Assembly: GCA_964398645.1 (NCBI GenBank)
Contig: CAYNNU010000048.1
Span: forward strand, 1-12,996
DNA: 12,996 bases
From: an uncultured Spirochaeta sp.
GTDB lineage: Bacteria > Spirochaetota > Spirochaetia > DSM-27196 > DSM-8902
Direction: 5' to 3'
Below are positions 1,117 through 12,996 of the stretch, piece after piece. Both the position numbers and the translations under genes were made by a program. How positions within the stretch are numbered: the stretch's first letter is position 1; every line of letters starts with the position of its first letter. Below the pieces are notes generated by a model, which saw nothing but the letters and a program-made list of their open reading frames with translations, searched no databases and was not told the origin of the DNA.

Positions 1117-1145
1117 TTGCACTATTCTAAATCCGGCATTATAGT
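1117..1145 (+). promoter_or_regulatory. Sigma70-like promoter for the regulator/transporter operon (TTGCAC -17 nt- TATAGT)
   Basis: A -35 hexamer TTGCAC (1117-1122), exactly 17 nt of spacer, and a -10 hexamer TATAGT (1140-1145) lie about 50 nt upstream of the ATG at 1195. The -10 overlaps the left arm of the palindrome. Confidence 0.4.
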
Positions 1146-1177
1146 ACTATTGTACTAGTTAACTAGTACAATAGTAC
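1144..1177. promoter_or_regulatory. Perfect 34-bp palindromic operator, candidate binding site of the adjacent YtrA/GntR repressor
   Basis: GTACTATTGTACTAGTT|AACTAGTACAATAGTAC is a perfect inverted repeat centred on TT|AA. Each arm carries two GTAC(T)A half-sites, which fits GntR-type GT...AC operator logic. It overlaps the -10 element and the predicted transcription start, and sits directly upstream of the GntR gene, suggesting autoregulation. Confidence 0.6.
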
Positions 1178-1194
1178 ATTCCAGGGAGATTTCG

Positions 1195-1593
1195 ATGGTA
1201 AAGCCGGCAATCCAGTTTTCCATAGATCACAGCAACGGGGTACCCTACTATAAACAAATCATTTTACAGGTTGAACTTGCGATCGCTGATTCACGCCTTC
1301 AGTCAGGCGACCAACTGCCAACCGTGCGTAGTCTCGCCGTTGAATTGCAAATAAACCCCAACACCGTTGCCAAGGCATATCACCAACTGGAACTGCGGGG
1401 TATTGTGAATACCCAGCAAGGAACTGGCACCTTTATTTCAAACCGGACAATACCGGTGTCAGATATTGAAAAAGAACGCATTTTGGCAGAAATTTGCCAA
1501 AGCACCGTGAGTAAAGCCGGCGCATACGGCTTTTCTATTCCAGATATCATCGATCAATTACAGGAAATGAATACCAAGGAGGACCTGGCATGA
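1195..1593 (+). CDS. GntR-family transcriptional regulator, YtrA subfamily (short C-terminal domain)
   Basis: The 132-aa product has an N-terminal winged-HTH of GntR type (PTVRSLAVELQINPNTVAKAYHQLELRGIV...QQGTGTFIS). Its C-terminal domain is only about 50 aa, as in the YtrA subfamily, whose members usually control adjacent ABC-transporter operons. RBS GGGAG sits 6 nt upstream. The stop overlaps the next start in an ATGA. Confidence 0.85.
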   Translation: MVKPAIQFSIDHSNGVPYYKQIILQVELAIADSRLQSGDQLPTVRSLAVELQINPNTVAKAYHQLELRGIVNTQQGTGTFISNRTIPVSDIEKERILAEICQSTVSKAGAYGFSIPDIIDQLQEMNTKEDLA

Positions 1594-2699
1594 GTATTTT
1601 TTCAGAGAAACTCTTTTCCCACGATCAATACCGAATAAAAAATCTGCCGAAACGCCGCATACCGATAGACTTCCGCTTTTCTACCTTCTCCTTTTTGAGC
1701 ATGCTGTTTCTATCAGGCGGGTTTATCTCTCTTATATTTGTGTTTGACGGGCCAATCCCAGCAACCGACCTGCAAGGGGCCGCCGCCGGCCTGTTCGCCG
1801 GAGCACTTTTACTGATTCTTCTACCCCACTGGGTAATGCTGGTTCTGGCTCTCTTTGTTGCTGGAGGAGTTCAGACCATACTAAGCGGCGCTCCCCCCGC
1901 ATCACCTTGGCTGGCCGCATTGCCGGCAGCCGTACTCATTCCATCTGCAATGCTGCAAATCATCACCCACTGGGACAAGGCCATCATTTTACGCGCCGGG
2001 AAATTTCAACGGGTACAGAACGCGGGTCTCTTTCTGCTCATCCCCTTTCTGGACCGCATTGCCGCCAAAGTAGACACACGCATCCGCGTTACCGATTTCA
2101 GTGCCGAGCGCACACTTAGCCGCGACAATGTTCCGGTCCACATTGATGCAATCTGCTTCTGGATGATCTGGGATGCCGGCAAAGCAATACTGGAACTGGA
2201 AAATTATCTGGAAGCCATCACCCTCTCGGCTCAGACCGCCTTGCGGGACGCCATTGGAACCCATGATCTAAGCACTCTACTTTCCGAAAGAGACAAAGTA
2301 GGCCGTGACCTCCAACAAATCCTGGACACCAAAACTGATCCCTGGGGAATTACCGTACTTTCGGTTGAATTTACCGACATCATCATTCCAAAAGAGTTAG
2401 AAGATGCCATGAGCAAAAAGGCCCAGGCCGACCGTGAACGGCAGGCTCGCCTCATTCTGGGCGAAACAGAAATCGAGCTGGCACAGAATATGTGTACAGC
2501 CGAACAACATTACAAAGACAATCCCGAAGCCTTTCAACTGCGCGCAATGAACATGGTGTATGATGCACTGCGACAAAGCAAAGGCTCAGTAGTACTTATT
2601 CCATCTTCGGCGGCAGAACAGATGAATCTGGGCAGCCCGCTAGGAACAATAGCCCTGCAGAAATCTCTGCAAAATAAAACAGAAGGAGAAACGCCATGA
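1590..2699 (+). CDS. SPFH/band-7 (stomatin/HflK/C-like) membrane protein with an extended multi-TM N-terminal region
   Basis: Residues from about 130 onward show the SPFH signature (ILRAGKFQRV...FLLIPFLDRIA...RVTDFSAERTLSRDNVPVHIDAICFWMIWDA...DPWGITVLSVEFTDIIIP...AQADRERQARLILGETEIELA...GSVVLIPSS). The N-terminal 130 aa are very hydrophobic and contain about 3-4 predicted TM helices. RBS AAGGAGG sits 7 nt upstream. There are ATGA overlaps with both the upstream regulator and the downstream ATPase. Confidence 0.85.
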   Translation: MSIFSEKLFSHDQYRIKNLPKRRIPIDFRFSTFSFLSMLFLSGGFISLIFVFDGPIPATDLQGAAAGLFAGALLLILLPHWVMLVLALFVAGGVQTILSGAPPASPWLAALPAAVLIPSAMLQIITHWDKAIILRAGKFQRVQNAGLFLLIPFLDRIAAKVDTRIRVTDFSAERTLSRDNVPVHIDAICFWMIWDAGKAILELENYLEAITLSAQTALRDAIGTHDLSTLLSERDKVGRDLQQILDTKTDPWGITVLSVEFTDIIIPKELEDAMSKKAQADRERQARLILGETEIELAQNMCTAEQHYKDNPEAFQLRAMNMVYDALRQSKGSVVLIPSSAAEQMNLGSPLGTIALQKSLQNKTEGETP

Positions 2700-3400
2700 T
2701 ACGCGTACAAAACGTCGAAAAAAACTATATTGATGGTGACACCACGGTGCATGCCCTGCGAGGAGTAGACCTGCACATCAAAAGTGGAGAATTTATGTCG
2801 ATTGCAGGGCCTTCCGGCTCAGGCAAAAGCACCCTGCTCAACCTGATTGGCTGCCTGGACAGTATGGACAGCGGTGAAATCCTTATCGAAGGAACCGCAA
2901 TCAGCCACATGAACAAAAAACAGCTAGTGGAATTACGGCGCGAAAAAATCGGCTTTGTATTTCAAAGCTTCAACCTGATCCCAGTACTTACCGCATACGA
3001 AAATATTGCAATAGTTGTTTCCCTTTTGAATATTTCAAAAGACGAAGTACACGAACGTTGCATGAATCTGCTCAAGGAAGTCGGCTTGGAAGGACTGGAA
3101 AACCGCCGGCCGGCTAAACTCTCTGGCGGACAACAACAGCGAGTTGCCATCGCTCGGGCACTCATTAAAAACCCGCTGATGGTACTGGCAGATGAGCCAA
3201 CAGCAAACCTGGACTCTGAAAACGGCGAGGCCATCCTGAAACTCATGAAGAAAATTAACCAGGAACACGGCACAACCTTTGTATTTTCCACCCATGATCC
3301 AATGGTTATGAACTACGCCGACAGGCTGTGCCGATTACAAGATGGCCTGATTACCAGCGATGAAGCAGTTCAACATACTCCAGCAGGGGGCTTGGCATGA
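2696..3400 (+). CDS. ABC transporter ATP-binding protein, LolD/MacB-type
   Basis: It has Walker A GPSGSGKST, Q-loop, ABC signature LSGGQQQRVAIARAL, Walker B LMVLADEPT and an H-loop (STHD). It is 234 aa with no fused membrane domain. RBS AAGGAG sits 7 nt upstream. ATGA overlap with the next gene. Confidence 0.95.
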   Translation: MIRVQNVEKNYIDGDTTVHALRGVDLHIKSGEFMSIAGPSGSGKSTLLNLIGCLDSMDSGEILIEGTAISHMNKKQLVELRREKIGFVFQSFNLIPVLTAYENIAIVVSLLNISKDEVHERCMNLLKEVGLEGLENRRPAKLSGGQQQRVAIARALIKNPLMVLADEPTANLDSENGEAILKLMKKINQEHGTTFVFSTHDPMVMNYADRLCRLQDGLITSDEAVQHTPAGGLA

Positions 3401-4677
3401 AAACAAAAAAGAATCATAAGCTTCTGCTGTTGATACTTTCCCTCAAGAACTTGTCCCGGCATAGGCGAAGAACAATCATTACAGCCATTGCAATTGCCGC
3501 CGGCACAGCTATTTACATAGCAACCACCTCTCTCATTGCCGGCTTTTCCAGCGAGTCAGACCGCAACCTGAAGGAATTTGAACTAGGCAACGTAGGAATC
3601 TTTGCCATGGATTATTGGGCAGAGAAAGACCAGCACCCGCTGGATCACATGCTGGAAAACCCGCAAGCCACACTGGATGCATTGCGTGCGCAGGACATCC
3701 CGGCTGTGGAACGCCTGAATTTCAAAGGCGAATTGATTATCCACTATGATCCATTTCCAGAGGATGGCTCTATTCCTATGCAGTTTTCTGCTATCGACCC
3801 TCAAGAAGATGACCAGGTCTTTCATCTGAAAGACACCCTCATAGAGGGACGCTGGCTGGAAGATGGCGATGAAATTCTGATTGGCCGTTGGCTAGCCGAC
3901 AAGATCGGCGCCGAAGTAGGCTACTATGTAAGCGTAACCACTCGCACCCGAGACGGCTTTCGACAATTGATGGATTTTCAGATTGTGGGGATCTTTGAAA
4001 GCTTTAACCCGCAGATCGATCGGAAAGTATTATATATTCCACTAGACACAGCCCACATGTACCTGGAAACCGGCGGCGCAGTAAATACCATCCATGCCTT
4101 ACTACCGGAAAATCAACCCGGTACAGCCGATGTACAGCCAATCCGGGACATTTTGCAGGAAGCCCTTCCAGCAGAGAGCCAGCAAATTGAGGTTTTGAGC
4201 TTTGCGCAAATGAACGAAGAAATGGCGGCACTTATGCAAATGTCCGATACAGCAACCGGTATACTCCTGTTTCTACTTGGAATCATTGCCGTCGTTGGCG
4301 TTTCCAATACCATGCTTATGTCAGTGATGGAGCGGCAGAAAGAAATCGGCACTATGCGGGCCCTTGGCTTTCGCAACGGCGAAATACGTCAGCTATTCAT
4401 GTTAGAAGCTGCCGGCATCGGCCTTATTGGCGCAATCGGCGGGCTCATTATCGGCGCCATTCTCGTGGGCCTCATGGTTAACGTTGGTATCGATTACGGA
4501 TTCCTGCTGGAGGATGCGGATATGGAATTCCGCCTGGGCAACGTGCTCCACGGAGTTTGGAACACTGCAGATATGCTGAACGTGGCCATCTTCGCCTTTC
4601 TCTTTTCCGGCTTGGTAGCTTTGTTTCCCGTTCGTAACATGCTAGGCAAGCAGGTAACCGAAAACCTGCGGCAATAA
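3397..4677 (+). CDS. ABC transporter permease, FtsX/MacB/LolC-E family (4 TM with a large periplasmic domain)
   Basis: The 426-aa product has TM1 near the N-terminus, a soluble periplasmic domain of about 230 aa, and a C-terminal FtsX domain with three TM helices (...SVMERQKEIGTMRALGFRNGEIRQLFMLEAAGIGLIGA...). Size and topology match LolC/LolE and MacB membrane domains. Confidence 0.9.
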   Translation: MKTKKNHKLLLLILSLKNLSRHRRRTIITAIAIAAGTAIYIATTSLIAGFSSESDRNLKEFELGNVGIFAMDYWAEKDQHPLDHMLENPQATLDALRAQDIPAVERLNFKGELIIHYDPFPEDGSIPMQFSAIDPQEDDQVFHLKDTLIEGRWLEDGDEILIGRWLADKIGAEVGYYVSVTTRTRDGFRQLMDFQIVGIFESFNPQIDRKVLYIPLDTAHMYLETGGAVNTIHALLPENQPGTADVQPIRDILQEALPAESQQIEVLSFAQMNEEMAALMQMSDTATGILLFLLGIIAVVGVSNTMLMSVMERQKEIGTMRALGFRNGEIRQLFMLEAAGIGLIGAIGGLIIGAILVGLMVNVGIDYGFLLEDADMEFRLGNVLHGVWNTADMLNVAIFAFLFSGLVALFPVRNMLGKQVTENLRQ

Positions 4678-4705
4678 TTGCCGTACTGGATGCAAGGAGG
4701 CACCC

Positions 4706-5944
4706 ATGAATTTTATCGAAATTGCATTCCGCAATCTATTTAGAAACCGACGACGCAGCATCTTGTCCCTTATGGGAGTTGTTGTTGCTTCCCTTTCAAT
4801 TACCTTCCTATTCTCAATGTTAGCGGGTCTTTCCGACGACATCGAAAAAAATGCTTGGGAATACGAAACCGGCGAGGTTCATGTTCGCAACCAGCTGTAC
4901 AACAAATACGAATACCTATATCCAGTCCAATATGTTGTTCCCAACTACACGGAACTGACCCAGTTTCTGCGTGAACGACAAGGAATTGCCGCAGTGAGCC
5001 CAAGGATTCAAGTTCCAGGCATTTCATTTATTGGCGAAGAGCAAATCAGCGCTGTGGGCATCGGCCTGGACATGGAAAGTGAAAGCGAATACCAAAACCT
5101 TGGCGACATTGTCATTGATGGCCGGCTTCCCGAGCCAAACAGCAACGAAGCCCTTATTGGCGCAGGGCTTGCACAAAAACTGGGCGTAACTATTGGCGAC
5201 GAAGCCACCTTTATGACGCAAACTCGTTACCGCAGCTCCAACGCATTTACTGTAGACATTGTCGGCATTGCTGCATTCCCGGTTACTGCCATGAATTCCC
5301 GCACCTACGTTCTGCCCATCGAACGGGCCGATTACTACATGCGGATGGATGGTGGCGCCAGTGAAATCCTGATCAAAACGACTGAGCACGAGCCCGAGCG
5401 AACCACGGCGGAACTCAATGAGTTCTTTTCCCAACACGCGGCCGAGGGCTGGAATCAGCTGGAAGCTCGATCTTGGACAAAAATCAGTGCCGGATATGCT
5501 TCTTTATCCATGGCAGGAGCAATTTACAGCATCATGGCTCTCATCTTTTTTCTGCTAGCCGCAACAGTAATAATCAGCACAACCATGATGATTATCAACG
5601 AACGCACCCGGGAAATTGGAACGCTCTCTGCCCTGGGAATGAGCGAGGGCCAACTGGTTCGCCTGTTCTTTACCGAGGCCGCTCTTCTGGGCTTTGCCGG
5701 GGCCTTTATCGGCGTTCTTCTTGGCATTGCCATTACTGTGCCTGTTGGAATCACCGGCTTGGACATTTCCGCCAAAATGGACATGATGGACATGGGAATA
5801 TCCAGCCTGCTCTACCCACGCATCAACATTATGTCTACCGTTGGTGTTTTCTTCTTTGCGTGGATAACCAGCATGGCAGCAACCTACCCTTCAGCACAGC
5901 GAGCCGCTAAATTGAAGCCAGTCGAAGCTCTGCGGGCTGTATAA
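4706..5944 (+). CDS. Second ABC transporter permease, FtsX/LolC-E family (paralogous partner)
   Basis: The 412-aa product has the same architecture: TM1, a periplasmic domain, and a C-terminal FtsX domain (...IINERTREIGTLSALGMSEGQLVRLFFTEAALLGFAGA...). RBS AAGGAGG sits 7 nt upstream. Double stop TAATAA at the end. Confidence 0.9.
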   Translation: MNFIEIAFRNLFRNRRRSILSLMGVVVASLSITFLFSMLAGLSDDIEKNAWEYETGEVHVRNQLYNKYEYLYPVQYVVPNYTELTQFLRERQGIAAVSPRIQVPGISFIGEEQISAVGIGLDMESESEYQNLGDIVIDGRLPEPNSNEALIGAGLAQKLGVTIGDEATFMTQTRYRSSNAFTVDIVGIAAFPVTAMNSRTYVLPIERADYYMRMDGGASEILIKTTEHEPERTTAELNEFFSQHAAEGWNQLEARSWTKISAGYASLSMAGAIYSIMALIFFLLAATVIISTTMMIINERTREIGTLSALGMSEGQLVRLFFTEAALLGFAGAFIGVLLGIAITVPVGITGLDISAKMDMMDMGISSLLYPRINIMSTVGVFFFAWITSMAATYPSAQRAAKLKPVEALRAV

Positions 5945-5958
5945 TAAAGGAGAACAAA

Positions 5959-6744
5959 ATGAATATACATATTGAGAAAACCAACAGACCGAAGATTCCA
6001 GCCATGCTGATTCTTGGCGTTCTTCTAAGCTGTATTATTTCCAGCCCCCTATTCGCCCAAAATAGCGGACTTACAGCAGCACAGATCATCGATCGAATGG
6101 AAGCAAATCAAACACAGCAAACCAGCATTTCCCAGGGACGAATGATTATTTCAGACCGCTTTGGAGAACGAGTCAGCACTTACCAAGCATGGTCGGAAGG
6201 CTCAAACCGCTTTTTGGTTGAATTCACCTCTCCGCACGAACGGGGACAAAAGGTTTTGCGCCGCGACGACAGCCTGTTCCTGTACTACCCTGATGCACGC
6301 GAAACAATTCGCCTGCAAGGCGCAGCTCTACGCGATTCCCTGCTTGGCTCCGACATTTCCTATGAGGACATGACCGGAAACCGCGGACTGGAAGACAACT
6401 ATACCTTTGAACTTTTAGGAACCGAGGAGTACGACGGAAGACAGTGCTACAAAATCAGATTGACTGCCCGGCAAGCCAACGTGGCCTATCCGGAACAAAT
6501 TATCTGGGTGGACTCACAGGATTTTGTTATGCGCAAAAGCGAGCAATATGCCCGTAGCGGCCGCCTGCTGAAAACCACCCGGGTGCTGGCAACAACAATT
6601 GCCGGCGGCTATCACTTTCCAACCCACATGGAAATTGTCGACGAAACCCGTAGCTCAAGCAAAACGGAAATGATTACCGAAGACATTCAACTTGATGTGC
6701 AACTGCCTGCCAACATTTTTTCTTTGGAGGAACTTTCGTGGTGA
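5959..6744 (+). CDS. LolA-like periplasmic protein ('outer membrane lipoprotein-sorting protein' family, LolA_like/PF17131-type)
   Basis: It has an N-terminal signal peptide (charged n-region, then MLILGVLLSCIISSPLFA, with a possible cleavage ...LFA|QNS or a relaxed lipobox LLSC). From memory, the family-typical motifs are present: AAQIIDRMEAN, FLVEFTSP..G, DDSLFLYYPD, and the hallmark GSDISYEDM. RBS AAGGAG. Overlaps the next gene. Confidence 0.75.
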   Translation: MNIHIEKTNRPKIPAMLILGVLLSCIISSPLFAQNSGLTAAQIIDRMEANQTQQTSISQGRMIISDRFGERVSTYQAWSEGSNRFLVEFTSPHERGQKVLRRDDSLFLYYPDARETIRLQGAALRDSLLGSDISYEDMTGNRGLEDNYTFELLGTEEYDGRQCYKIRLTARQANVAYPEQIIWVDSQDFVMRKSEQYARSGRLLKTTRVLATTIAGGYHFPTHMEIVDETRSSSKTEMITEDIQLDVQLPANIFSLEELSW

Positions 6745-7847
6745 GATTTGCGGCTTGCATCATACTACTGCTTTTTTCCGCTGCTATGCTTCCCGCCCAG
6801 TCGGCATCGACCATCCGGTTGGATATAGAAAACCTGGCTGTCTTCTCTTGGGATGGCAGCCAGGCATTGGGAGCAGGCACAAGCAGCGCATCAGTTGATT
6901 TCCTATCGGCGCCCTCATCATCTGTGCAGGGCCGGCTGCAAATGGATTTCAACCTGCTGCGTGATCAAACTACCGGCGCTTTAACCCCCTATCTGAGCCT
7001 TCCCAGAGCCTCCATCCGCTTCCGTTTTCCAGTAACAGACAGCTATTCCATCAGAATTACCACCGGCCGCGACCGGCTAAGCTGGGGACTGGGAAGCCTG
7101 TTTAAAGCCGGCGATATTCTTTTTGGCGCAGATGGCAGCAGCAGTGCCGACCTGACCCAAAGCGGCGATGTCCGCGACGAAACCGCCTGGCTGACGGCTA
7201 TCTACTTTCCGCTTGGCGGGCTTGGATTTCTGGAAACAGTCTACTTGCCCCCGCTTATGCAGATTCCAACCAACACAGATCCTCAGCCTATTCTACCGCT
7301 GGATTACAGCCGCGCCGGCTTACGCATTCACAGCGCAGTTGGACCGGTCAGCCTTGAAACAGCCTGGCTGTACGATGGAGAGCGCAGCCCGCTGAATACC
7401 TACACAAGCCCGCGAAATCATTTTGCCCAATCCATACAGTGGAATCTGCTGGGCGCAGACATCTACTCTTCCGCCGCGCTGAACATACCCATTACCGCAG
7501 AACGATCTACCGCAAACCTTGTTCAGGATTATGGCAGCTTGTCGGCTGGAGTTTTCCGCTCTTTTTCCCCAGCCTACGGGCAGAGCCTAAGCGCACGTGC
7601 TGAAATTCTGCTTCAACCAGCCGAAGATACGCCGTGGCAGCTGTACCCGGAGCTCATTTGGGCACCGAACCGCAGCCAAACCTGGCTAGCCCGCGCAGTA
7701 ATACGCGAAGGCCAAAGCGATATTACCCTTGGAGGATTTCGAGCGCTGTACCAGGGTTTTTCAGTGGTATTTTTTGCCGCAGGAAGTTTTTCGGATGAGC
7801 AGGATACTACTTTCGCGATTGCCGCCGGCATTCAATACCAATTTTAA
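6738..7847 (+). CDS. Secreted protein, probable outer-membrane beta-barrel (C-terminal ...IQYQF)
   Basis: GTG start, with GGAGG 7 nt upstream, in a GTGGTGA overlap with the LolA-like gene's stop. Signal peptide MVRFAACIILLLFSAAMLPA|QSAS. It is Ser/Gly/Ala/Leu-rich with alternating hydrophobic patterns. The terminal aromatic Phe is typical of BAM-dependent OM barrels. No recognisable catalytic motifs. Confidence 0.6.
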   Translation: MVRFAACIILLLFSAAMLPAQSASTIRLDIENLAVFSWDGSQALGAGTSSASVDFLSAPSSSVQGRLQMDFNLLRDQTTGALTPYLSLPRASIRFRFPVTDSYSIRITTGRDRLSWGLGSLFKAGDILFGADGSSSADLTQSGDVRDETAWLTAIYFPLGGLGFLETVYLPPLMQIPTNTDPQPILPLDYSRAGLRIHSAVGPVSLETAWLYDGERSPLNTYTSPRNHFAQSIQWNLLGADIYSSAALNIPITAERSTANLVQDYGSLSAGVFRSFSPAYGQSLSARAEILLQPAEDTPWQLYPELIWAPNRSQTWLARAVIREGQSDITLGGFRALYQGFSVVFFAAGSFSDEQDTTFAIAAGIQYQF

Positions 7848-9037
7848 GAAGATTGATGCTGGCCGGCATGATCTTTGACCGAGCTGCCGAAGAACAACAG
7901 CAAAAAAAAGCCCAGGCTGGTAAAACCAGCCATAGCAAGAAAAACCCCACTCACGGATTTTTCCGCCACAAAGCCGCCAAGATTTGCCGAAACAAATAAG
8001 CCTAGGCTAAACATCATATTAAACGCCAAAGACATCCGGCCGCGGAAGCGCTCCGGCGAGCAGTCCATCAAATATCCCATAATGCGCGGAAAAATGACCC
8101 CATGAGCAACCCCATAGCCCGCGCCGGCAAGCGCTAGCAGTGTATAGCCACCAGCCAAGTAGGCGGACAGCAAACTTAAAGGTAAAACCGCCAGAGGAAT
8201 AGCGAGCACATACACCAGTTTATAGCGATCAAAAAGCTGACTGACGCTCAAGCGCAAAAGCGCAACCATAATTGGATAGGCAATATAAAAGGGCCGAACC
8301 AGCCCAATCCCCCGTGCCAGCACTAAATCCGGCAAAAAGGCCACAAAGGTGCCAAAGCCTGCGCCCAGAGTAAAAACCCAAAAAAGAGGCAATATATAAT
8401 GACGATGCCCCAGCACCTCGATAAATTCGCGCCAGCTAGAACGGCTGTTCTTCTCTACCGGCGGCCTGGCCGGATATAAAAGAGCCGAGATCAACGCCAG
8501 CGCAAACAGGCAAAAGGAAAAAATATACAGCCGCGTTAGCCCGCCGCTGTCAAACATAATTTCGCCGACCGCCGCTGCTGTTAAACCCCCAGCCTGTCCT
8601 ATCAAGCCGAACAGCGCAATCCCGCGGGCACGGGAACCGGCCGGCAGCACCCGGCCCAAGGCAGCATTGTAGCTAATCATCATTACGGCAAAAAGCGCAC
8701 CCTGCACGGCACGCGGAATTGCAAAAAAAGCCGAGTCTGGAACCGGTAAAAAATACAAAGCCGGCACTGCCATCCCCACCAGCATGGCAACAGCCAGAAT
8801 ACGCCCCGCCCGAAAGCGATCCACGACCGCAGCAAGAAACGGCAAAACCAGTAAAGCTCCAGCCCCTGTCCAGCCCATAATAAAGCCGGTACGAACCGGA
8901 CTAATCCCCTGCAAAGAGAAATGCTTAGGCAGTAAATTGAAACTTTCACTGGCGCTCACCCCAAAATACATGGCCGCGCCCAACAGGAAAAAAACAGCCG
9001 CCGATGCCCCGGCAGACCCCGCTGAATTATTCTTCAT
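7844..9037 (-). CDS. Major facilitator superfamily (MFS) transporter
   Basis: The 397-aa product is very hydrophobic, with about 12 predicted TM segments and an MFS-like D-R-x-x-R loop (VVDRFRAGRIL) after TM2. It is convergent with the beta-barrel gene, and the two stop codons overlap (TTAA at 7844-7847). Confidence 0.85.
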   Translation of the reverse strand: MKNNSAGSAGASAAVFFLLGAAMYFGVSASESFNLLPKHFSLQGISPVRTGFIMGWTGAGALLVLPFLAAVVDRFRAGRILAVAMLVGMAVPALYFLPVPDSAFFAIPRAVQGALFAVMMISYNAALGRVLPAGSRARGIALFGLIGQAGGLTAAAVGEIMFDSGGLTRLYIFSFCLFALALISALLYPARPPVEKNSRSSWREFIEVLGHRHYILPLFWVFTLGAGFGTFVAFLPDLVLARGIGLVRPFYIAYPIMVALLRLSVSQLFDRYKLVYVLAIPLAVLPLSLLSAYLAGGYTLLALAGAGYGVAHGVIFPRIMGYLMDCSPERFRGRMSLAFNMMFSLGLFVSANLGGFVAEKSVSGVFLAMAGFTSLGFFLLLFFGSSVKDHAGQHQSS

Positions 9038-9905
9038 CCAGCTCTTCTTGCACCGGCACCCGTTCGGCCCGCTTTTTTACCCTGCCGAAAAATGAAAAAT
9101 GGGGTATCATAACAGCCGGCTTGGCTGAAATCATTATTTCTTCACCGGTAGCCGGGTTCCGACCCATCCGCGCCTTCCGCGCCGGCCGCTGATGCAGGGA
9201 AAGACTTCCCAGCCGACCCAGAGGCACCCGCTCGCCCATCATCATTCCTGCTTCCACCATTGATAGGTAATCATCAATGATTTCACGAGTCTGAGCCTGG
9301 GTTAAATCAGTGCGCGAAGCAATATAGCGCACGATATTCTGCATGGTAAAATGATCCAGATCGCCGGAAACAAGGGTGAGGGTTCTATTTATCTTGGCAA
9401 AACCATTGGTTAGAAACAACATGGCTTCGCGCAAACGCTTATCTTGCTCATCCGGTTTCACATCATCGGCAAAACTGGTAACCATCAATATTTCTGATGA
9501 ACGGGCAACGGGTGAACCGGCAAACTGAGCAACCTCATCAAGCTTCAAGTTGCTTTGCAACTGCACCCCTTTTGCATAAATTACATCCGGCACGTCGTGC
9601 CGAAGTTTGATGCTGGCATATTCGAAGCGGCGGCCGCCGGGGCCCTTGCCCTCTCGATTACTTTCCAGGCCAATAAGGGAACCGGAATAGGTAAGCAGCA
9701 TTACCGCGCGCCCATCATCCATAGAAAACGAATCCAGCTGCTGCATATCCAAAGCATCAGCCTGCTCCTGATACAAACGCCGCTTTTCCAGCCAATTACG
9801 GGTAATCATCTCCAGAGATTCATCCCCGTCGGGCAAACCACTGGTTGCAGTAATTGTCCGTAAATGGTCTTGAATGCGTTGCGGCAAGATGTCGAATTGC
9901 TCCAT
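9027..9905 (-). CDS. Two-domain protein with an uncharacterised N-terminal domain (~190 aa) and a C-terminal HU/IHF-family DNA-binding domain
   Basis: The C-terminal ~95 aa align to HU/IHF: FTMQNIVRYIASRTDLTQAQTREIIDDYL...GERVPLGRLGSLSLHQRPARKARMGRNPATGEEIMISAKPAVMIPHFSFFGRVKKR, compared with E. coli HU ...RAERTGRNPQTGKEIKIAA.... The N-terminal 190 aa carry no motif I recognise. RBS GGAGG sits 7 nt upstream. The 3' end overlaps the MFS start by 11 bp. Confidence 0.8.
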   Translation of the reverse strand: MEQFDILPQRIQDHLRTITATSGLPDGDESLEMITRNWLEKRRLYQEQADALDMQQLDSFSMDDGRAVMLLTYSGSLIGLESNREGKGPGGRRFEYASIKLRHDVPDVIYAKGVQLQSNLKLDEVAQFAGSPVARSSEILMVTSFADDVKPDEQDKRLREAMLFLTNGFAKINRTLTLVSGDLDHFTMQNIVRYIASRTDLTQAQTREIIDDYLSMVEAGMMMGERVPLGRLGSLSLHQRPARKARMGRNPATGEEIMISAKPAVMIPHFSFFGRVKKRAERVPVQEELDEE

Positions 9906-9985: not shown

Positions 9986-10028
9986 TTTCTGTACGAATAA
10001 GTAATGAAGCAATTAAAAGGAGTTGGCC

Positions 10029-12182
10029 ATGCGATTTTTCAAAATAACGGCTTTCCTACTGACAATGCTGATTATAGCCCTATCCGGCTGTGATCTGCAA
10101 ATGCCGCAGGAAGTCCATGTCACTGGATCCCCGAGCTACGAATTGCCCGCAGGAACCATGGAATTTGATCTTATGCAGGAGCTTGATTTGGAAAACCAGA
10201 TTGAAACTGCCCTGCAGGATTATGTTGATACCCAGAATAATATGACACTGAGTGTCGTAAACGACGTATACACAATAACGATTACCGAAAGTATGCTCGT
10301 TTCCGACATTTTGGGAGAAACGTCCATCGATATGTCAGATATTGAAGGGATTACCCCTACAACACTGCCTGCAGTGAGCGGGAATCTTCCGGCAGCGGTG
10401 TCCCTGACCCAAAACGCAAGCGATACTGTACCAGCCGGAACATACGGTCCGGGTGATACAACCGGAATAGACAGCAATTCCCAGCTTTTTACCCTTGGTA
10501 TAGCCGATTTTGTTTCCGGTACAATCGGCACTGGTACTTTCGGCATTACCATTACGCCGGACCATGCTGGTGTTACTATCGATCTCGACTCGATCGAACT
10601 GGTGCAGGATGCCACTACCCTAAAAACCTGGACCGACGGTGAACTGACTGGCCACAGCATTTCCCTTGATTTAGACGGAATTGGCTTGCTTTCAAGCAAT
10701 GATCTTACGTTCAACTACTCCTTTACCTACACCATTGCAGACGGAACGACCCTAACAGATGGCATAGATAACGGAGTTAATCTTGCCTTTGACATGTCTG
10801 TAACACAGTTTTCCACCCTGGTAATTGATGATTCCGGCAACGGCGATTTTGCTCCCCAGGGAGGCAGTGCTGATTCCATCATCGACCCTGCCCTTTCTGA
10901 TATGGTAAAGAGCATTCAGCTGGACCCAGCCCATCATTCACTTGATTTTACCATCACTAACAACTTGCCAGCCGACATCACTATTACTATTTCTTCCGAC
11001 GTATTGCTGGGCGTCGGTGGCACCGCTTCAGTTTCTTATGCAGCTGGCGATGACGCCACAAAATCCATTACCCTCTTGGACACAATCGATCTGACCTCTC
11101 TTGCCGACCTTGGCGGCGGGAACTTTGGTGTTGATTTTGATTTTGAACTTAGTTTTGATGGCTATAGTGAGGCACTGCAGCAAATGACGCTGACAAATGT
11201 CACCCTTGGCAACCCTTACAGCTTTAGCGGCTCCGTTGCACTGGATGCAACAGTAGACACCGTTACCCTGGGCGGCATCTCCGAAACCGGAAATTATCCC
11301 GATACAGCCGGCGGAGAAACACCTTTCAACTTGGCTGACATGCTGGATATGGTCCCCGCCGGAATAAATCTTTCCACCATAGAAATGAATGCAGCTGTTA
11401 ACGGCATTACTGATTTCAGCGGAGACGTTGTTCTGCTGGGTATAGACGGCGGCAGCGTAAGCGACGTGCTGGCTGGCACCTGGAATGGCGGTGTTGGCGC
11501 TGAAGATCCAGACCCAACGCATGCCGACTACAGCGGCCTTGCATTTACAACATCCTTTAGCCTAGACACCCTTAGCGACCTGTTGAATCAACGGCCAACA
11601 GCATTAGAACTGGCTTATGCAGTGAATGTAGACAATGCCACCATCGACCCATCCGACCTCACCCAGTATTCAATCGATGCAAGCATAAGCGTTCCCATGG
11701 CACTGGAGATCGTGCCTGCCGAAGGTGTCAACCAAGTCTTCGATGGAACAAATTATCTGATGGTTGAGTTTGATATGGACGGAGAAACGATTCTTCCATA
11801 CACAATTACTGACGACCTATTAGGACGAACCGTTGCTGATGAAATGGAAGAAGATTATGGCGAGTTCTTTGACATGCTGCAATCAGCAGCACTCAATATG
11901 CAGCTGAATAACGACTCCGGCATGAGCGCAATGTTTCGTATCTATCAGGCAGGAGCCCCGGATTTTGACAAGCAGTTGCCAATAACCACAGGACGGCACC
12001 GGTTGGAAATGACCGATGCGGATATTACCTTTATCCGGGAAAATCTATTCACACCGGAATTGCAGGTGTGGCTGCCAGAAGGAACCCTGTCCTTCAATCC
12101 GGAGCCGGCATTGACCTTTGCCCTTTGGCTAACGGTCCTCGCTGAAATCGACTATACATTCCCACTGCAAGGGGAGGAATAA
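10029..12182 (+). CDS. Large acidic Thr/Asp/Gly/Ser-rich lipoprotein (surface/envelope protein of unknown function)
   Basis: The ATG at 10029 has GGAG 6 nt upstream; the track's start at 10023 is a TTG artefact. The lipoprotein signal peptide is MRFFKITAFLLTMLIIALSG|C with lipobox L-S-G-C. The mature protein of about 695 aa is strongly acidic by eye, with well over 100 D/E against roughly a dozen K/R. It is rich in T, G, S, D, with many short beta-strand-like alternations (TITITP, FTITNN, ITITIS). No enzymatic motifs. Confidence 0.8.
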   Translation: MRFFKITAFLLTMLIIALSGCDLQMPQEVHVTGSPSYELPAGTMEFDLMQELDLENQIETALQDYVDTQNNMTLSVVNDVYTITITESMLVSDILGETSIDMSDIEGITPTTLPAVSGNLPAAVSLTQNASDTVPAGTYGPGDTTGIDSNSQLFTLGIADFVSGTIGTGTFGITITPDHAGVTIDLDSIELVQDATTLKTWTDGELTGHSISLDLDGIGLLSSNDLTFNYSFTYTIADGTTLTDGIDNGVNLAFDMSVTQFSTLVIDDSGNGDFAPQGGSADSIIDPALSDMVKSIQLDPAHHSLDFTITNNLPADITITISSDVLLGVGGTASVSYAAGDDATKSITLLDTIDLTSLADLGGGNFGVDFDFELSFDGYSEALQQMTLTNVTLGNPYSFSGSVALDATVDTVTLGGISETGNYPDTAGGETPFNLADMLDMVPAGINLSTIEMNAAVNGITDFSGDVVLLGIDGGSVSDVLAGTWNGGVGAEDPDPTHADYSGLAFTTSFSLDTLSDLLNQRPTALELAYAVNVDNATIDPSDLTQYSIDASISVPMALEIVPAEGVNQVFDGTNYLMVEFDMDGETILPYTITDDLLGRTVADEMEEDYGEFFDMLQSAALNMQLNNDSGMSAMFRIYQAGAPDFDKQLPITTGRHRLEMTDADITFIRENLFTPELQVWLPEGTLSFNPEPALTFALWLTVLAEIDYTFPLQGEE

Positions 12183-12185
12183 GCC

Positions 12186-12996
12186 ATGAACAAAAGAACT
12201 TTTTACAATTCCCTGCGCAGAAGTATTCTGGTTGCAGGATTCGCCCTGCTGACAATGTCGGCAGCTGCATTTTCCACTGACGCATTCAACCACGGAGATA
12301 ACCCGGTCTTTCTAAGCACCGGCTCCCGCTCTTTGCTGGATATCTCTGTAAATCCGGGAATCGGACTTACAAACAGCTACTTTACCCTGGACAAAATTTT
12401 CACGCCGACCATCATCATCGATTTTGATGATATCTACGAATCGATCGGCACCGGCGGGTACCGCATTGGCACAACCATCGATACCCACGCCCACGGCACC
12501 ATGCACCTCTTTGGCATTGGCGTCGGCGGCTATGCATCCGTAACCGGCTCAGCCCGTGTTACCCTTCCACAGGAAATGATTGGTCTTCTTACCCAAGGTA
12601 TTGAGCTAAATAATCCCTATGAAGGCACCGGAGAAGCATTCGTTCAGACCTTCGTTGAATACGGCGGCTACGGCAGCTTCCAGCTGGGCAATTTTACCAT
12701 CGGCACAAAAATTGCCCGCTATATCCCCTTGGCATATACCAAGAACGGCGAAGCCCTATTTGAAGCACAGGCAAACCAGGACGGCACGGTAACAGCAAGC
12801 GCTACGGTCTCCGCCCAATTGTATTCAGCAATGGATTTGGAAAACCCGGACAGCATGATGGATCAAAATGATATTTTACGCTATCTATCCGAATCCGGCG
12901 GTACAAAATTTGATATCGGCTTTGTATACAATCCGGATCGAAACCGACCGCTGTGGGGAGCTTCATTGCTGAACATTCCTTTAGGCGCAGCTAACC
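12186..12996 (+). CDS. Secreted beta-rich protein, probable outer-membrane/envelope protein; 3' end truncated by the window edge
   Basis: The frame stays open from the ATG at 12186 to the window end, about 270 codons with no stop, which is why the ORF track omits it. GGAGG sits 8 nt upstream and the gene begins 3 nt after the lipoprotein stop. Signal peptide MNKRTFYNSLRRSILVAGFALLTMSAAAFS. The product is Gly/Thr/Tyr-rich with amphipathic beta-strand-like alternations (GYRIGTTIDTH, FQLGNFTIGTKIARY). Confidence 0.7.
   Translation, partial: MNKRTFYNSLRRSILVAGFALLTMSAAAFSTDAFNHGDNPVFLSTGSRSLLDISVNPGIGLTNSYFTLDKIFTPTIIIDFDDIYESIGTGGYRIGTTIDTHAHGTMHLFGIGVGGYASVTGSARVTLPQEMIGLLTQGIELNNPYEGTGEAFVQTFVEYGGYGSFQLGNFTIGTKIARYIPLAYTKNGEALFEAQANQDGTVTASATVSAQLYSAMDLENPDSMMDQNDILRYLSESGGTKFDIGFVYNPDRNRPLWGASLLNIPLGAAN

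Follow-up and report, generated by a model that had tools for sequence, protein, structure and literature searches.

The DNA analysed here is a 12,996-nt stretch (hereafter the window) of contig CAYNNU010000048.1 from an uncultured Spirochaeta sp., and its main subject is a run of seven genes which, together with their control region, occupy positions 1117 to 7847. An initial annotation had been made from the sequence alone; protein families were assigned with Pfam and NCBIfam, for which ten proteins encoded in the window were scanned. The features of the region are as follows (aa, amino acids; ABC, ATP-binding cassette; AF2, AlphaFold2).

1117-1145, + strand: putative sigma-70 promoter, with −35 TTGCAC at 1117-1122, a 17-nt spacer and −10 TATAGT at 1140-1145
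1144-1177, no strand: putative operator, a perfect 34-nt palindrome with arms GTACTATTGTACTAGTT/AACTAGTACAATAGTAC and core GTACTAGTTAACTAGTAC at 1152-1169
1195-1593, + strand: gene 1, YtrA-type GntR repressor as classed by sequence, 132 aa, PF00392
1590-2699, + strand: gene 2, stomatin-type SPFH protein, 369 aa, PF01145
2696-3400, + strand: gene 3, ABC ATPase of the LolD/MacB/DevA/FtsE group, 234 aa, PF00005
3397-4677, + strand: gene 4, FtsX-family permease a, 426 aa, PF02687 and PF12704
4706-5944, + strand: gene 5, FtsX-family permease b, 412 aa, PF02687 and PF12704
5959-6744, + strand: gene 6, probable periplasmic LolA3-type protein, 261 aa, PF17131
6738-7847, + strand: gene 7, 369 aa, outer-membrane beta-barrel predicted with 18 strands in the AF2 model, family without annotation

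All seven open reading frames (ORFs) are co-directional and closely packed. The junction of genes 1 and 2, read directly, is a 4-nt ATGA overlap at 1590-1593, and the ORF coordinates place overlaps of the same kind between genes 2 and 3 (2696-2699) and genes 3 and 4 (3397-3400). Genes 4 and 5 are separated by a 28-nt gap containing AAGGAGG and genes 5 and 6 by a 14-nt gap containing AAGGAG, while genes 6 and 7 share the 7 nt GTGGTGA at 6738-6744. The arrangement described in the initial annotation, with three ATGA overlaps, one GTGGTGA overlap and no gap longer than 28 nt, was therefore reproduced from coordinates and junction sequences, and the families that it had named (SPFH as Band_7, ABC_tran, FtsX with MacB_PCD twice, and a LolA-like family, PF17131) were all matched.

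A profile scan of genomes with gene 7 yielded 14 loci, in Spirochaeta, Alkalispirochaeta and other Spirochaetia, and the succession ABC ATPase–FtsX–FtsX–LolA-like protein–barrel was kept in all 14 as far as the contigs reach. Spirochaeta lutea carries all seven genes, with a diverged gene 7 homologue in the usual slot, as also seen on another long contig. A metagenome scan with an SPFH profile returned at least 384 relatives, and the metagenome counts given here were taken from the best 80. In 19 of the 25 long loci (at least 6.2 kb downstream), tblastn detected genes 3 to 7 directly after GntR–SPFH, or after SPFH where the contig starts there. Four long loci apparently lacked gene 7, one having a diverged homologue and another (L082) none. 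Named sources were Spirochaeta, Alkalispirochaeta, Sediminispirochaeta and Sphaerochaetaceae, and the gene order was kept at protein identities down to 25-30%. The genes on either side vary from genome to genome, so that the cassette stands as a unit of its own. The recurrence is not sporadic, and the seven tightly coupled genes form a real operon with an order conserved across free-living spirochaetes (Spirochaetia). A chance juxtaposition, or an anti-phage defence island, would leave unexplained why gene order across dozens of loci, the overlaps and the operator are conserved while the flanks differ; PADLOC models gave generic ABC and FtsX matches only, with no defence-specific model matched, and this explanation, refuted by the synteny, has a probability that is practically nil.

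The palindrome at 1144-1177 had been described initially as perfect and as overlapping the promoter, and it is indeed an inverted repeat of 17+17 nt without spacer (17/17 complementary bases) that starts inside the TATAGT −10 hexamer. Each of its arms in the window holds two tandem GTACTA half-sites. In 47 of 67 loci the motif GTAYTA-N6-TARTAC was found in the 150 nt that precede the GntR start, with 6 matches elsewhere in 926 kb, and the orthologous operators lie a few bases downstream of a TTGACA-type promoter. A generic promoter scan left the TTGCAC/TATAGT pair below threshold and unlisted, promoter-like sites in the window being no more frequent than expected by chance; the putative promoter was assigned because of its position and because better −35 boxes (TTGACA/TTGACG) occupy the same place in orthologous loci. 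The gene 1 product contains a GntR winged helix-turn-helix (PF00392, E = 2.4e-14, residues 19-81), and neither a second Pfam domain nor a FadR, HutC or MocR effector domain was found in it. It aligns over nearly its full length with the short GntR models PmtR (125 aa) and Rv1152 (120 aa) of NCBIfam, scoring below both equivalog cut-offs. With a very short C-terminal domain (about 50 aa), first position in an ABC operon and a palindrome at its own promoter, gene 1 is, by these sequence features, a YtrA-type GntR repressor, and a conserved palindrome with the character of an operator is shown to overlap the −10/+1 region ahead of it.

Further information on the control of the cassette came from variant loci. 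In three of them (L008, L012 from Alkalispirochaeta alkalica, and L017) a TetR gene abuts the ATPase gene, with GntR and SPFH both absent, and the Bacteroidota version (Persicobacter) is also TetR-linked. The three TetR loci indicate that the functional core is made up of the five downstream genes, and that GntR and SPFH are an exchangeable module with a regulatory or organising role. The dedicated YtrA repressor and SPFH protein emphasised in the initial annotation are therefore present and conserved with the cassette, but only as a module that can be replaced by TetR without SPFH.

The gene 2 product has a Band 7 domain (PF01145, E = 8e-34) followed by a coiled-coil C-terminus, as in SPFH/stomatin proteins, relatives of which form oligomeric cages. 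Its nearest solved chains in the PDB are PH stomatin (E = 2e-38), human stomatin (about 1e-34) and QmcA (E = 4e-30); the stomatin entries matched have 16 chains each and the QmcA entry 26. Three to four hydrophobic segments lie within residues 33-126. Unlike many prokaryotic stomatin operons, the window encodes no NfeD family protein by Pfam. In 62 of 63 metagenome loci the SPFH gene was immediately preceded by GntR, and in 57 of 60 it was immediately followed by ABC/FtsX genes. As the SPFH protein always accompanies GntR and is missing where TetR is in control, it is inferred to belong to the regulatory half of the operon. Two loci (L073, 6567-8173, and L096) carry GntR–SPFH with no ABC, LolA-like or barrel genes within 7 kb downstream, and repressor and stomatin can therefore occur as a stand-alone pair.

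The gene 3 product is an ABC ATPase (PF00005, E = 1.9e-35) with intact motifs in its translation (Walker A GPSGSGKST, signature LSGGQQQR, Walker B LVLADEPT). Its best NCBIfam matches were DarD, LolD, DevA, FtsE and MacB, all below the equivalog cut-offs; against LolD (TIGR02211) it scored 229.9 and did not reach the cut-off of 307.75. Genes 4 and 5 encode paralogues that are about 25% identical, each with an FtsX domain (PF02687, E = 5.5e-19 and 1.4e-18, respectively) and a MacB_PCD domain (PF12704, E = 1.9e-11 at residues 26-238 of gene 4 and E = 1.1e-10 at residues 18-236 of gene 5). Gene 4 has a first transmembrane segment, a periplasmic domain of about 240 aa and three C-terminal hydrophobic segments; in gene 5 the first transmembrane segment and two others reached the threshold and the fourth segment fell below it. 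The nearest solved chains were LolE and LolF, then MacB, LolC and YtrF, for gene 4, and LolF and LolE for gene 5, with FtsX and YtrF also among the solved relatives of the permeases. The alignments with LolE and LolF span the full length, periplasmic domains included, and are better than those with MacB. Genes 3 to 5 are thereby shown, as far as sequence comparison can classify them, to be a type VII (MacB/FtsX-fold) ABC set of one ATPase and two LolE/LolF-like permeases, in agreement with the Lol-like architecture first proposed. In eight metagenome loci (L046, L048, L052, L053, L054, L066, L070 and L085) a third FtsX-type gene, closest to gene 4, lies between the SPFH and ATPase genes.

The gene 6 product matched LolA_like (PF17131) with 180.8 bits (cut-off 30; E = 2.6e-53) over model positions 2-183 of 184, and its sequence matches in the PDB were 3buu, 9tp6, 3bk5 and 4z48. 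An AF2 model built from 29 orthologues had a predicted local distance difference test (pLDDT) score of 89 and shows the LolA/LolB half-barrel, an unclosed beta-barrel with extra strands and a C-terminal helix, so that the LolA-like fold expected from the initial reading is borne out at the level of family and model. The N-terminus is hydrophobic and has a Cys at position 25, which is not conserved among 28 orthologues; these have AxA-like cleavage sites. A lipoprotein was rejected for this reason; the gene 6 product is predicted to carry a signal for signal peptidase I and to be soluble in the periplasm. FSLEELTW, or a close variant of it, forms the C-terminus of every orthologue. The segment at the end of the gene in the window (6715-6744), (I/L)FSL(E/D)ELTW, is nearly invariant across them and might serve for docking to the barrel or the permease. 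A similar IFSL occurs near the C-terminus of Borrelia BBJ28 (L105, 21220-21948), the alignment being otherwise insignificant. The matched entry 9tp6 is Porphyromonas gingivalis LolA3 (PGN0947), which has a 13-strand sheet with a hydrophobic groove (PMC13103446).

Given these similarities, it was also possible that the operon is a lipoprotein route, in which certain lipoproteins, such as those of the spirochaetal surface, would be extracted by the Lol-like ABC complex, carried by the LolA-like protein and inserted or flipped at the outer membrane by the barrel, which would take the place of LolB. The closeness of the permeases to LolE and LolF and the LolA/LolB fold of gene 6 would fit such a route, and the same has been proposed for Borrelia BBJ23-29, spirochaetes being without a known LolB (PMC13078400). 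The canonical LolCDE system was, however, rejected: gene 6 matches PF17131 and not PF03548, and genes 3 to 5 fall far below the equivalog cut-offs, the permeases scoring 95.7 (gene 4) and 127.3 (gene 5) against 362.45 for LolCE (TIGR02212). Furthermore, P. gingivalis LolA3 binds LolB only very weakly and has neither the LolA Arg nor the LolB Leu signature (PMC13103446). In Flavobacterium johnsoniae, deletion of lolA3 gave no gliding or type IX secretion system phenotype, and surface lipoproteins were still localised in cells without any LolA/LolB genes (PMC11885536). Interchangeable GntR and TetR control would also suit an inducible function better than housekeeping biogenesis, and LolA3-type proteins elsewhere pair with resistance-nodulation-division (RND)/MMPL pumps, which do not handle lipoproteins. 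The lipoprotein route is therefore considered quite unlikely. Among the cargoes suggested in the initial annotation (lipid, glycolipid or lipoprotein), lipoprotein is the least supported, and a lipophilic toxin, a xenobiotic or an endogenous lipid is more likely.

No Pfam or NCBIfam family was found for gene 7. Its AF2 model (pLDDT 79, predicted TM-score 0.74) has a signal helix and 18 strands, and its best Foldseek TM-score, 0.60, was to AlgE; AlgE and the Occ porins were the best-fitting neighbours, and MOMP, chitoporin and maltoporin were also among the structural neighbours. Gene 7, which had been thought to be an outer-membrane barrel from its signal peptide and terminal Phe, is accordingly predicted by modelling to be an 18-stranded outer-membrane beta-barrel. 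A word-indexed search returned 22 relatives, all of those with a source name being from spirochaetes, and an exhaustive profile search of 1.84 billion cluster representatives returned 315. The gene follows gene 6 in the window and in the related genome loci as far as the contigs reach. Nearly all family members start with 'MV', because the start codon lies inside the ATGGTRA/GTGGTGA that encodes the Trp-stop end of gene 6. Of 17 loci, 15 keep this start-stop overlap, a sign of translational coupling and probably of a stoichiometric complex of the two products. At the GC-rich locus L082, where genes 3 to 6 are diverged, the LolA-like gene is followed by a 433-aa protein (12192-13493) with no detectable relation to gene 7; only the GR..L..G.G motif region aligns (hhalign probability 3%), and the outer-membrane partner may have been replaced there.

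Among the closest parallels in design are AmeABCD of Castellaniella defragrans and other DUF1302–DUF1329–BNR–RND(HAE3) clusters, which likewise combine a barrel, a LolA-superfamily protein and an energised inner-membrane transporter with no HlyD-type adaptor. Deletion of ameABCD (DUF1302, DUF1329, BNR and HAE3 RND) lowered monoterpene tolerance and raised Nile Red accumulation, which is experimental evidence that AmeABCD exports hydrophobic compounds (PMC6394551), and 'export of a cell wall component' was proposed for a DUF1302/DUF1329/RND cofitness cluster (10.1101/072470). DUF1302 forms a barrel of 18 strands, closest among solved folds to an Occ channel and AlgE, and a DUF1302–DUF1329 complex was predicted by AlphaFold-Multimer with an interface score (ipTM) of 0.84 (PMC13499233, 2026); the gene 7 model has the same strand number and nearest folds. 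The engine of the AmeABCD type, however, is an RND pump driven by the proton-motive force, whereas that of the spirochaete operon is a type VII ABC transporter. The AmeABCD-type clusters have a BNR/Ycf48-like propeller that the spirochaete operon lacks, their LolA-like protein is a DUF1329 protein of about 450 aa in place of the short PF17131 protein, and their barrel belongs to PF06980, to which gene 7 has no detectable match. The stomatin and the YtrA repressor are additions of the spirochaete operon.

P. gingivalis LolA3 and Treponema pallidum TP0789 belong to the same family as gene 6 (PF17131, 'TP_0789-like'). Like the spirochaete operon, that of P. gingivalis places LolA3 beside a membrane transporter, with a dedicated repressor and a further protein after it, but the partner transporter in P. 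gingivalis and T. pallidum is of the MMPL/RND kind and not ABC. TP0789 is numbered next to the RND protein TP0790; TP0785-0788 were rejected as ABC/FtsX partners of TP0789, as TP0784-0786 are assigned to LptC/A/B and TP0790 to an RND pump (PMC8407342). Elsewhere, PF17131 stands beside MMPL/RND in Prevotella, as MMPL–LolA_like–DUF1302 in the same order, and on several proteobacterial plasmids. It stands beside type VII ABC genes in Burkholderia and Ralstonia (LolA_like–ABC–fused FtsX–380-aa protein with a weak DUF1302 match), in Aliiroseovarius (ABC–FtsX–LolA_like–hypothetical) and in Persicobacter. The resemblance to DUF1329 plus DUF1302 plus transporter clusters named in the initial annotation therefore holds at the level of architecture, for Prevotella, Burkholderia/Ralstonia and AmeABCD. 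Since a LolA3-type protein and barrel can be driven by either an RND pump or a type VII ABC transporter, the outer half can be argued to be a portable periplasm/outer-membrane module.

With LolCDE–LolA–LolB the operon shares one ATPase, two paralogous FtsX permeases with a periplasmic domain and a LolA/LolB half-barrel partner. It differs in having PF17131 in place of LolA (PF03548), no LolB, an 18-stranded barrel and repressor control, and the cassette is absent or replaced in some spirochaete lineages. The Borrelia burgdorferi lp38 cluster BBJ23–BBJ29, itself a computational proposal (PMC13078400), has a homologous permease (22% identity, E = 2e-11). Its barrel is Omp85-like and unrelated to gene 7 (hhalign against BBJ25 and BBJ29 at most 0.15%), any relationship of BBJ28 to gene 6 would be very remote (hhalign 7.8%, no tblastn match), and there is a single permease gene with neither GntR nor SPFH; orthology was accordingly rejected for all but the permease. 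MacAB–TolC and other type VII tripartite pumps share the FtsX/MacB_PCD permease and the LolD/MacB-type ATPase, the latter being a separate polypeptide in the spirochaete operon. These pumps have a membrane-fusion protein and a TolC-like duct. As stated in the initial annotation, no HlyD or other membrane-fusion family was found among the ten window proteins with Pfam and NCBIfam, and neither the family scans nor the structural comparison of gene 7 gave a TolC-like gene or trimeric outer-membrane factor in the window; a MacAB–TolC-type pump was therefore rejected.

The regulatory logic of the operon is that of Bacillus subtilis ytrABCDEF and Staphylococcus aureus pmtR–pmtABCD, in which a short GntR repressor also comes first and a palindromic operator lies at the promoter; YtrF, likewise an FtsX-type permease, is among the PDB matches of the permeases, and PmtR aligns full length with gene 1. 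Both systems are from monoderms and lack a LolA-like protein, a barrel and a stomatin, so the likeness extends to regulatory logic only. In B. subtilis, YtrA-type control acts on an FtsX-containing operon that responds to cell-envelope stress. Such control, together with FtsX and YtrF as solved relatives and a stomatin partner more suggestive of membrane organisation than of transport, would also be expected if the system worked by mechanotransmission or signalling, as FtsEX or YtrBCDEF do, with ATP hydrolysis moving the periplasmic domains and repositioning the LolA-like protein and barrel so that the envelope is remodelled under stress without any cargo. The closest relatives, LolE and LolF, handle cargo, however, and their alignments cover the periplasmic domains. 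The periplasmic partner has a lipid-carrier fold with a groove (PMC13103446), the pairing of a LolA3-type protein with a barrel is driven elsewhere by true RND pumps, and no hydrolase or peptidoglycan enzyme was found in the operon by Pfam. This possibility was consequently rated very unlikely.

Taken together, the seven genes are one operon, probably autoregulated, that most likely, with a probability judged somewhat better than even, encodes an inducible exporter, complete in itself, that carries a hydrophobic or amphiphilic molecule across the envelope. Inducible efflux systems typically have dedicated local repressors, and here the repressor would bind the palindrome and keep the promoter shut off until released by a signal from the membrane or envelope. 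The Lol-like ABC complex would then extract the hydrophobic cargo and hand it to the hydrophobic groove of the LolA3-type protein, which would work with, and probably dock on, the barrel, so that the cargo enters or crosses the outer membrane; cooperation of these two proteins is suggested by the gene 6/7 coupling and, by analogy, by the published DUF1302–DUF1329 prediction. The stomatin-type protein would oligomerise into a membrane cage or microdomain, by which the ABC complex would be organised or gated.

Several points weigh against an exporter of this kind. Its cargo, direction of transport and physical contacts are all inferred. The putative promoter hexamers agree with consensus at only 8 of 12 positions and are weak, and with either three or four transmembrane segments in gene 2 both membrane orientations of its SPFH domain have to be allowed. 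Sequence homology of gene 7 to DUF1302 was also not demonstrated: neither gene 7 nor any of 21 family members gave a Pfam match, PF06980 included, at E ≤ 1, and hhalign was negative against the Aliiroseovarius 480-aa and Persicobacter 378-aa proteins, gave a probability of 0.15% for the Prevotella DUF1302 and aligned the Burkholderia 380-aa DUF1302-like protein over a 24-column GRDRLSWGxG motif only (42%). Gene 7 is therefore claimed to share architecture and position with DUF1302, with no claim of family membership. In P. gingivalis, furthermore, hemin limitation induces the TetR–MMPL–LolA3–hypothetical operon, whose genes rank among those with the strongest induction (PMC10470040); lack of hemin is no obvious efflux signal. 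Random barcode transposon sequencing showed that Pseudomonas putida DUF1302/DUF1329 mutants lose fitness on Tween 20 and butyl stearate, and such fatty-ester defects in Pseudomonas have been read by some authors as defects in uptake or catabolism and not export (10.1101/2020.07.04.188060).

These last results would be explained if a hydrophobic nutrient, such as a fatty acid, ester, sterol or haem-like compound, were admitted by the barrel, shuttled inward by the LolA-like protein and delivered to the inner membrane by the ABC complex; Occ, MOMP, chitoporin and maltoporin, which are structural neighbours of the barrel, serve as uptake channels. Type VII ABC transporters, however, have no transmembrane substrate path and act from the periplasmic side, and none with the FtsX/MacB fold is known to import (reviewed in PMC5985334). 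The alternative engines found with LolA3-type proteins are RND/MMPL exporters, AmeABCD acts as an exporter (PMC6394551), and no importer-type substrate-binding protein was found in the operon by Pfam. Uptake was therefore given a very low probability, and export remains the preferred reading. A more specific form of the export reading, itself unlikely, would have a stomatin cage enclose the Lol-like type VII extractor and the LolA3-type protein dock permanently on, or plug, the AlgE/DUF1302-like barrel for export of an endogenous envelope lipid or glycolipid, or of a subset of surface lipoproteins, to the outer membrane, with the stomatin also serving as the membrane sensor for release of the YtrA repressor, which has no effector domain.

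The initial annotation had regarded the combination as apparently undescribed. No published description was found of the seven-gene unit or, more generally, of cassettes of type VII ABC, PF17131 and barrel; the idea is not wholly new, as AmeABCD, the DUF1302/DUF1329/RND cofitness cluster and Borrelia BBJ23-29 are close analogues. The design of transporter, LolA-superfamily protein and DUF1302-type barrel is known but barely studied, and a similar idea has been published for Borrelia. What is new is the ABC engine, the unannotated barrel family, the dedicated stomatin and the conserved YtrA operator.

No Rfam family and no tRNA were found in the window, the remainder of which contains neighbouring genes. 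A FabH-like ketoacyl-acyl carrier protein synthase III (KAS III) gene (1-1023, − strand; PF08545/PF08541 in the identical contig L001) is divergent from the operon across a 171-nt intergenic region, and its start is likely the ATG two codons after the listed TTG. On the other side, gene 7 and a convergent major facilitator superfamily (MFS) gene (7844-9037, − strand) overlap by 4 nt at their stop codons (7844-7847), which leaves no intergenic room for a terminator in either direction. Both were excluded as cassette members, as neither is conserved beside the cassette in other genomes, and KAS III is for this reason probably unrelated. The − strand gene at 9027-9905, which overlaps the start of the downstream MFS gene, encodes a 292-aa protein with an HU/IHF-type domain at residues 188-278 (PF00216, E = 2e-15) and an N-terminal region of about 185 aa without a family match. 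On the + strand, 10023-12182 encodes a protein of 719 aa, acidic and rich in Thr, Asp and Gly, whose signal is of the lipoprotein type (…IIALSGC); it matched nothing in Pfam or NCBIfam and is probably a large spirochaetal surface lipoprotein. Four nt after it, a partial + strand ORF (12186-12996, MNKRTFYNS…) runs off the end of the window; its product has a signal-peptide-like N-terminus, is Gly/Thr/Tyr-rich and may be a further envelope protein co-transcribed with the lipoprotein gene.

The operon bears on a general problem of spirochaetes and other diderms, namely by what route hydrophobic molecules cross the periplasm where there is neither LolB nor a TolC-type duct. PF17131/LolA3 proteins, DUF1302-like barrels, bacterial stomatins and YtrA repressors are each widespread and functionally obscure; the operon unites all four under a clear regulatory switch and provides defined partner pairs, namely repressor and operator, stomatin and ABC complex, permease and LolA3-type protein, and LolA3-type protein and barrel. 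If a stomatin-caged ABC conduit exists, it would be an outer-membrane delivery route for lipids or lipoproteins in a phylum without LolB and would give the first defined client of a bacterial stomatin other than a protease. If export is correct, the system would represent an adaptor-free alternative to tripartite efflux pumps and would aid the annotation of thousands of 'outer membrane lipoprotein-sorting protein' genes, which are probably misnamed.

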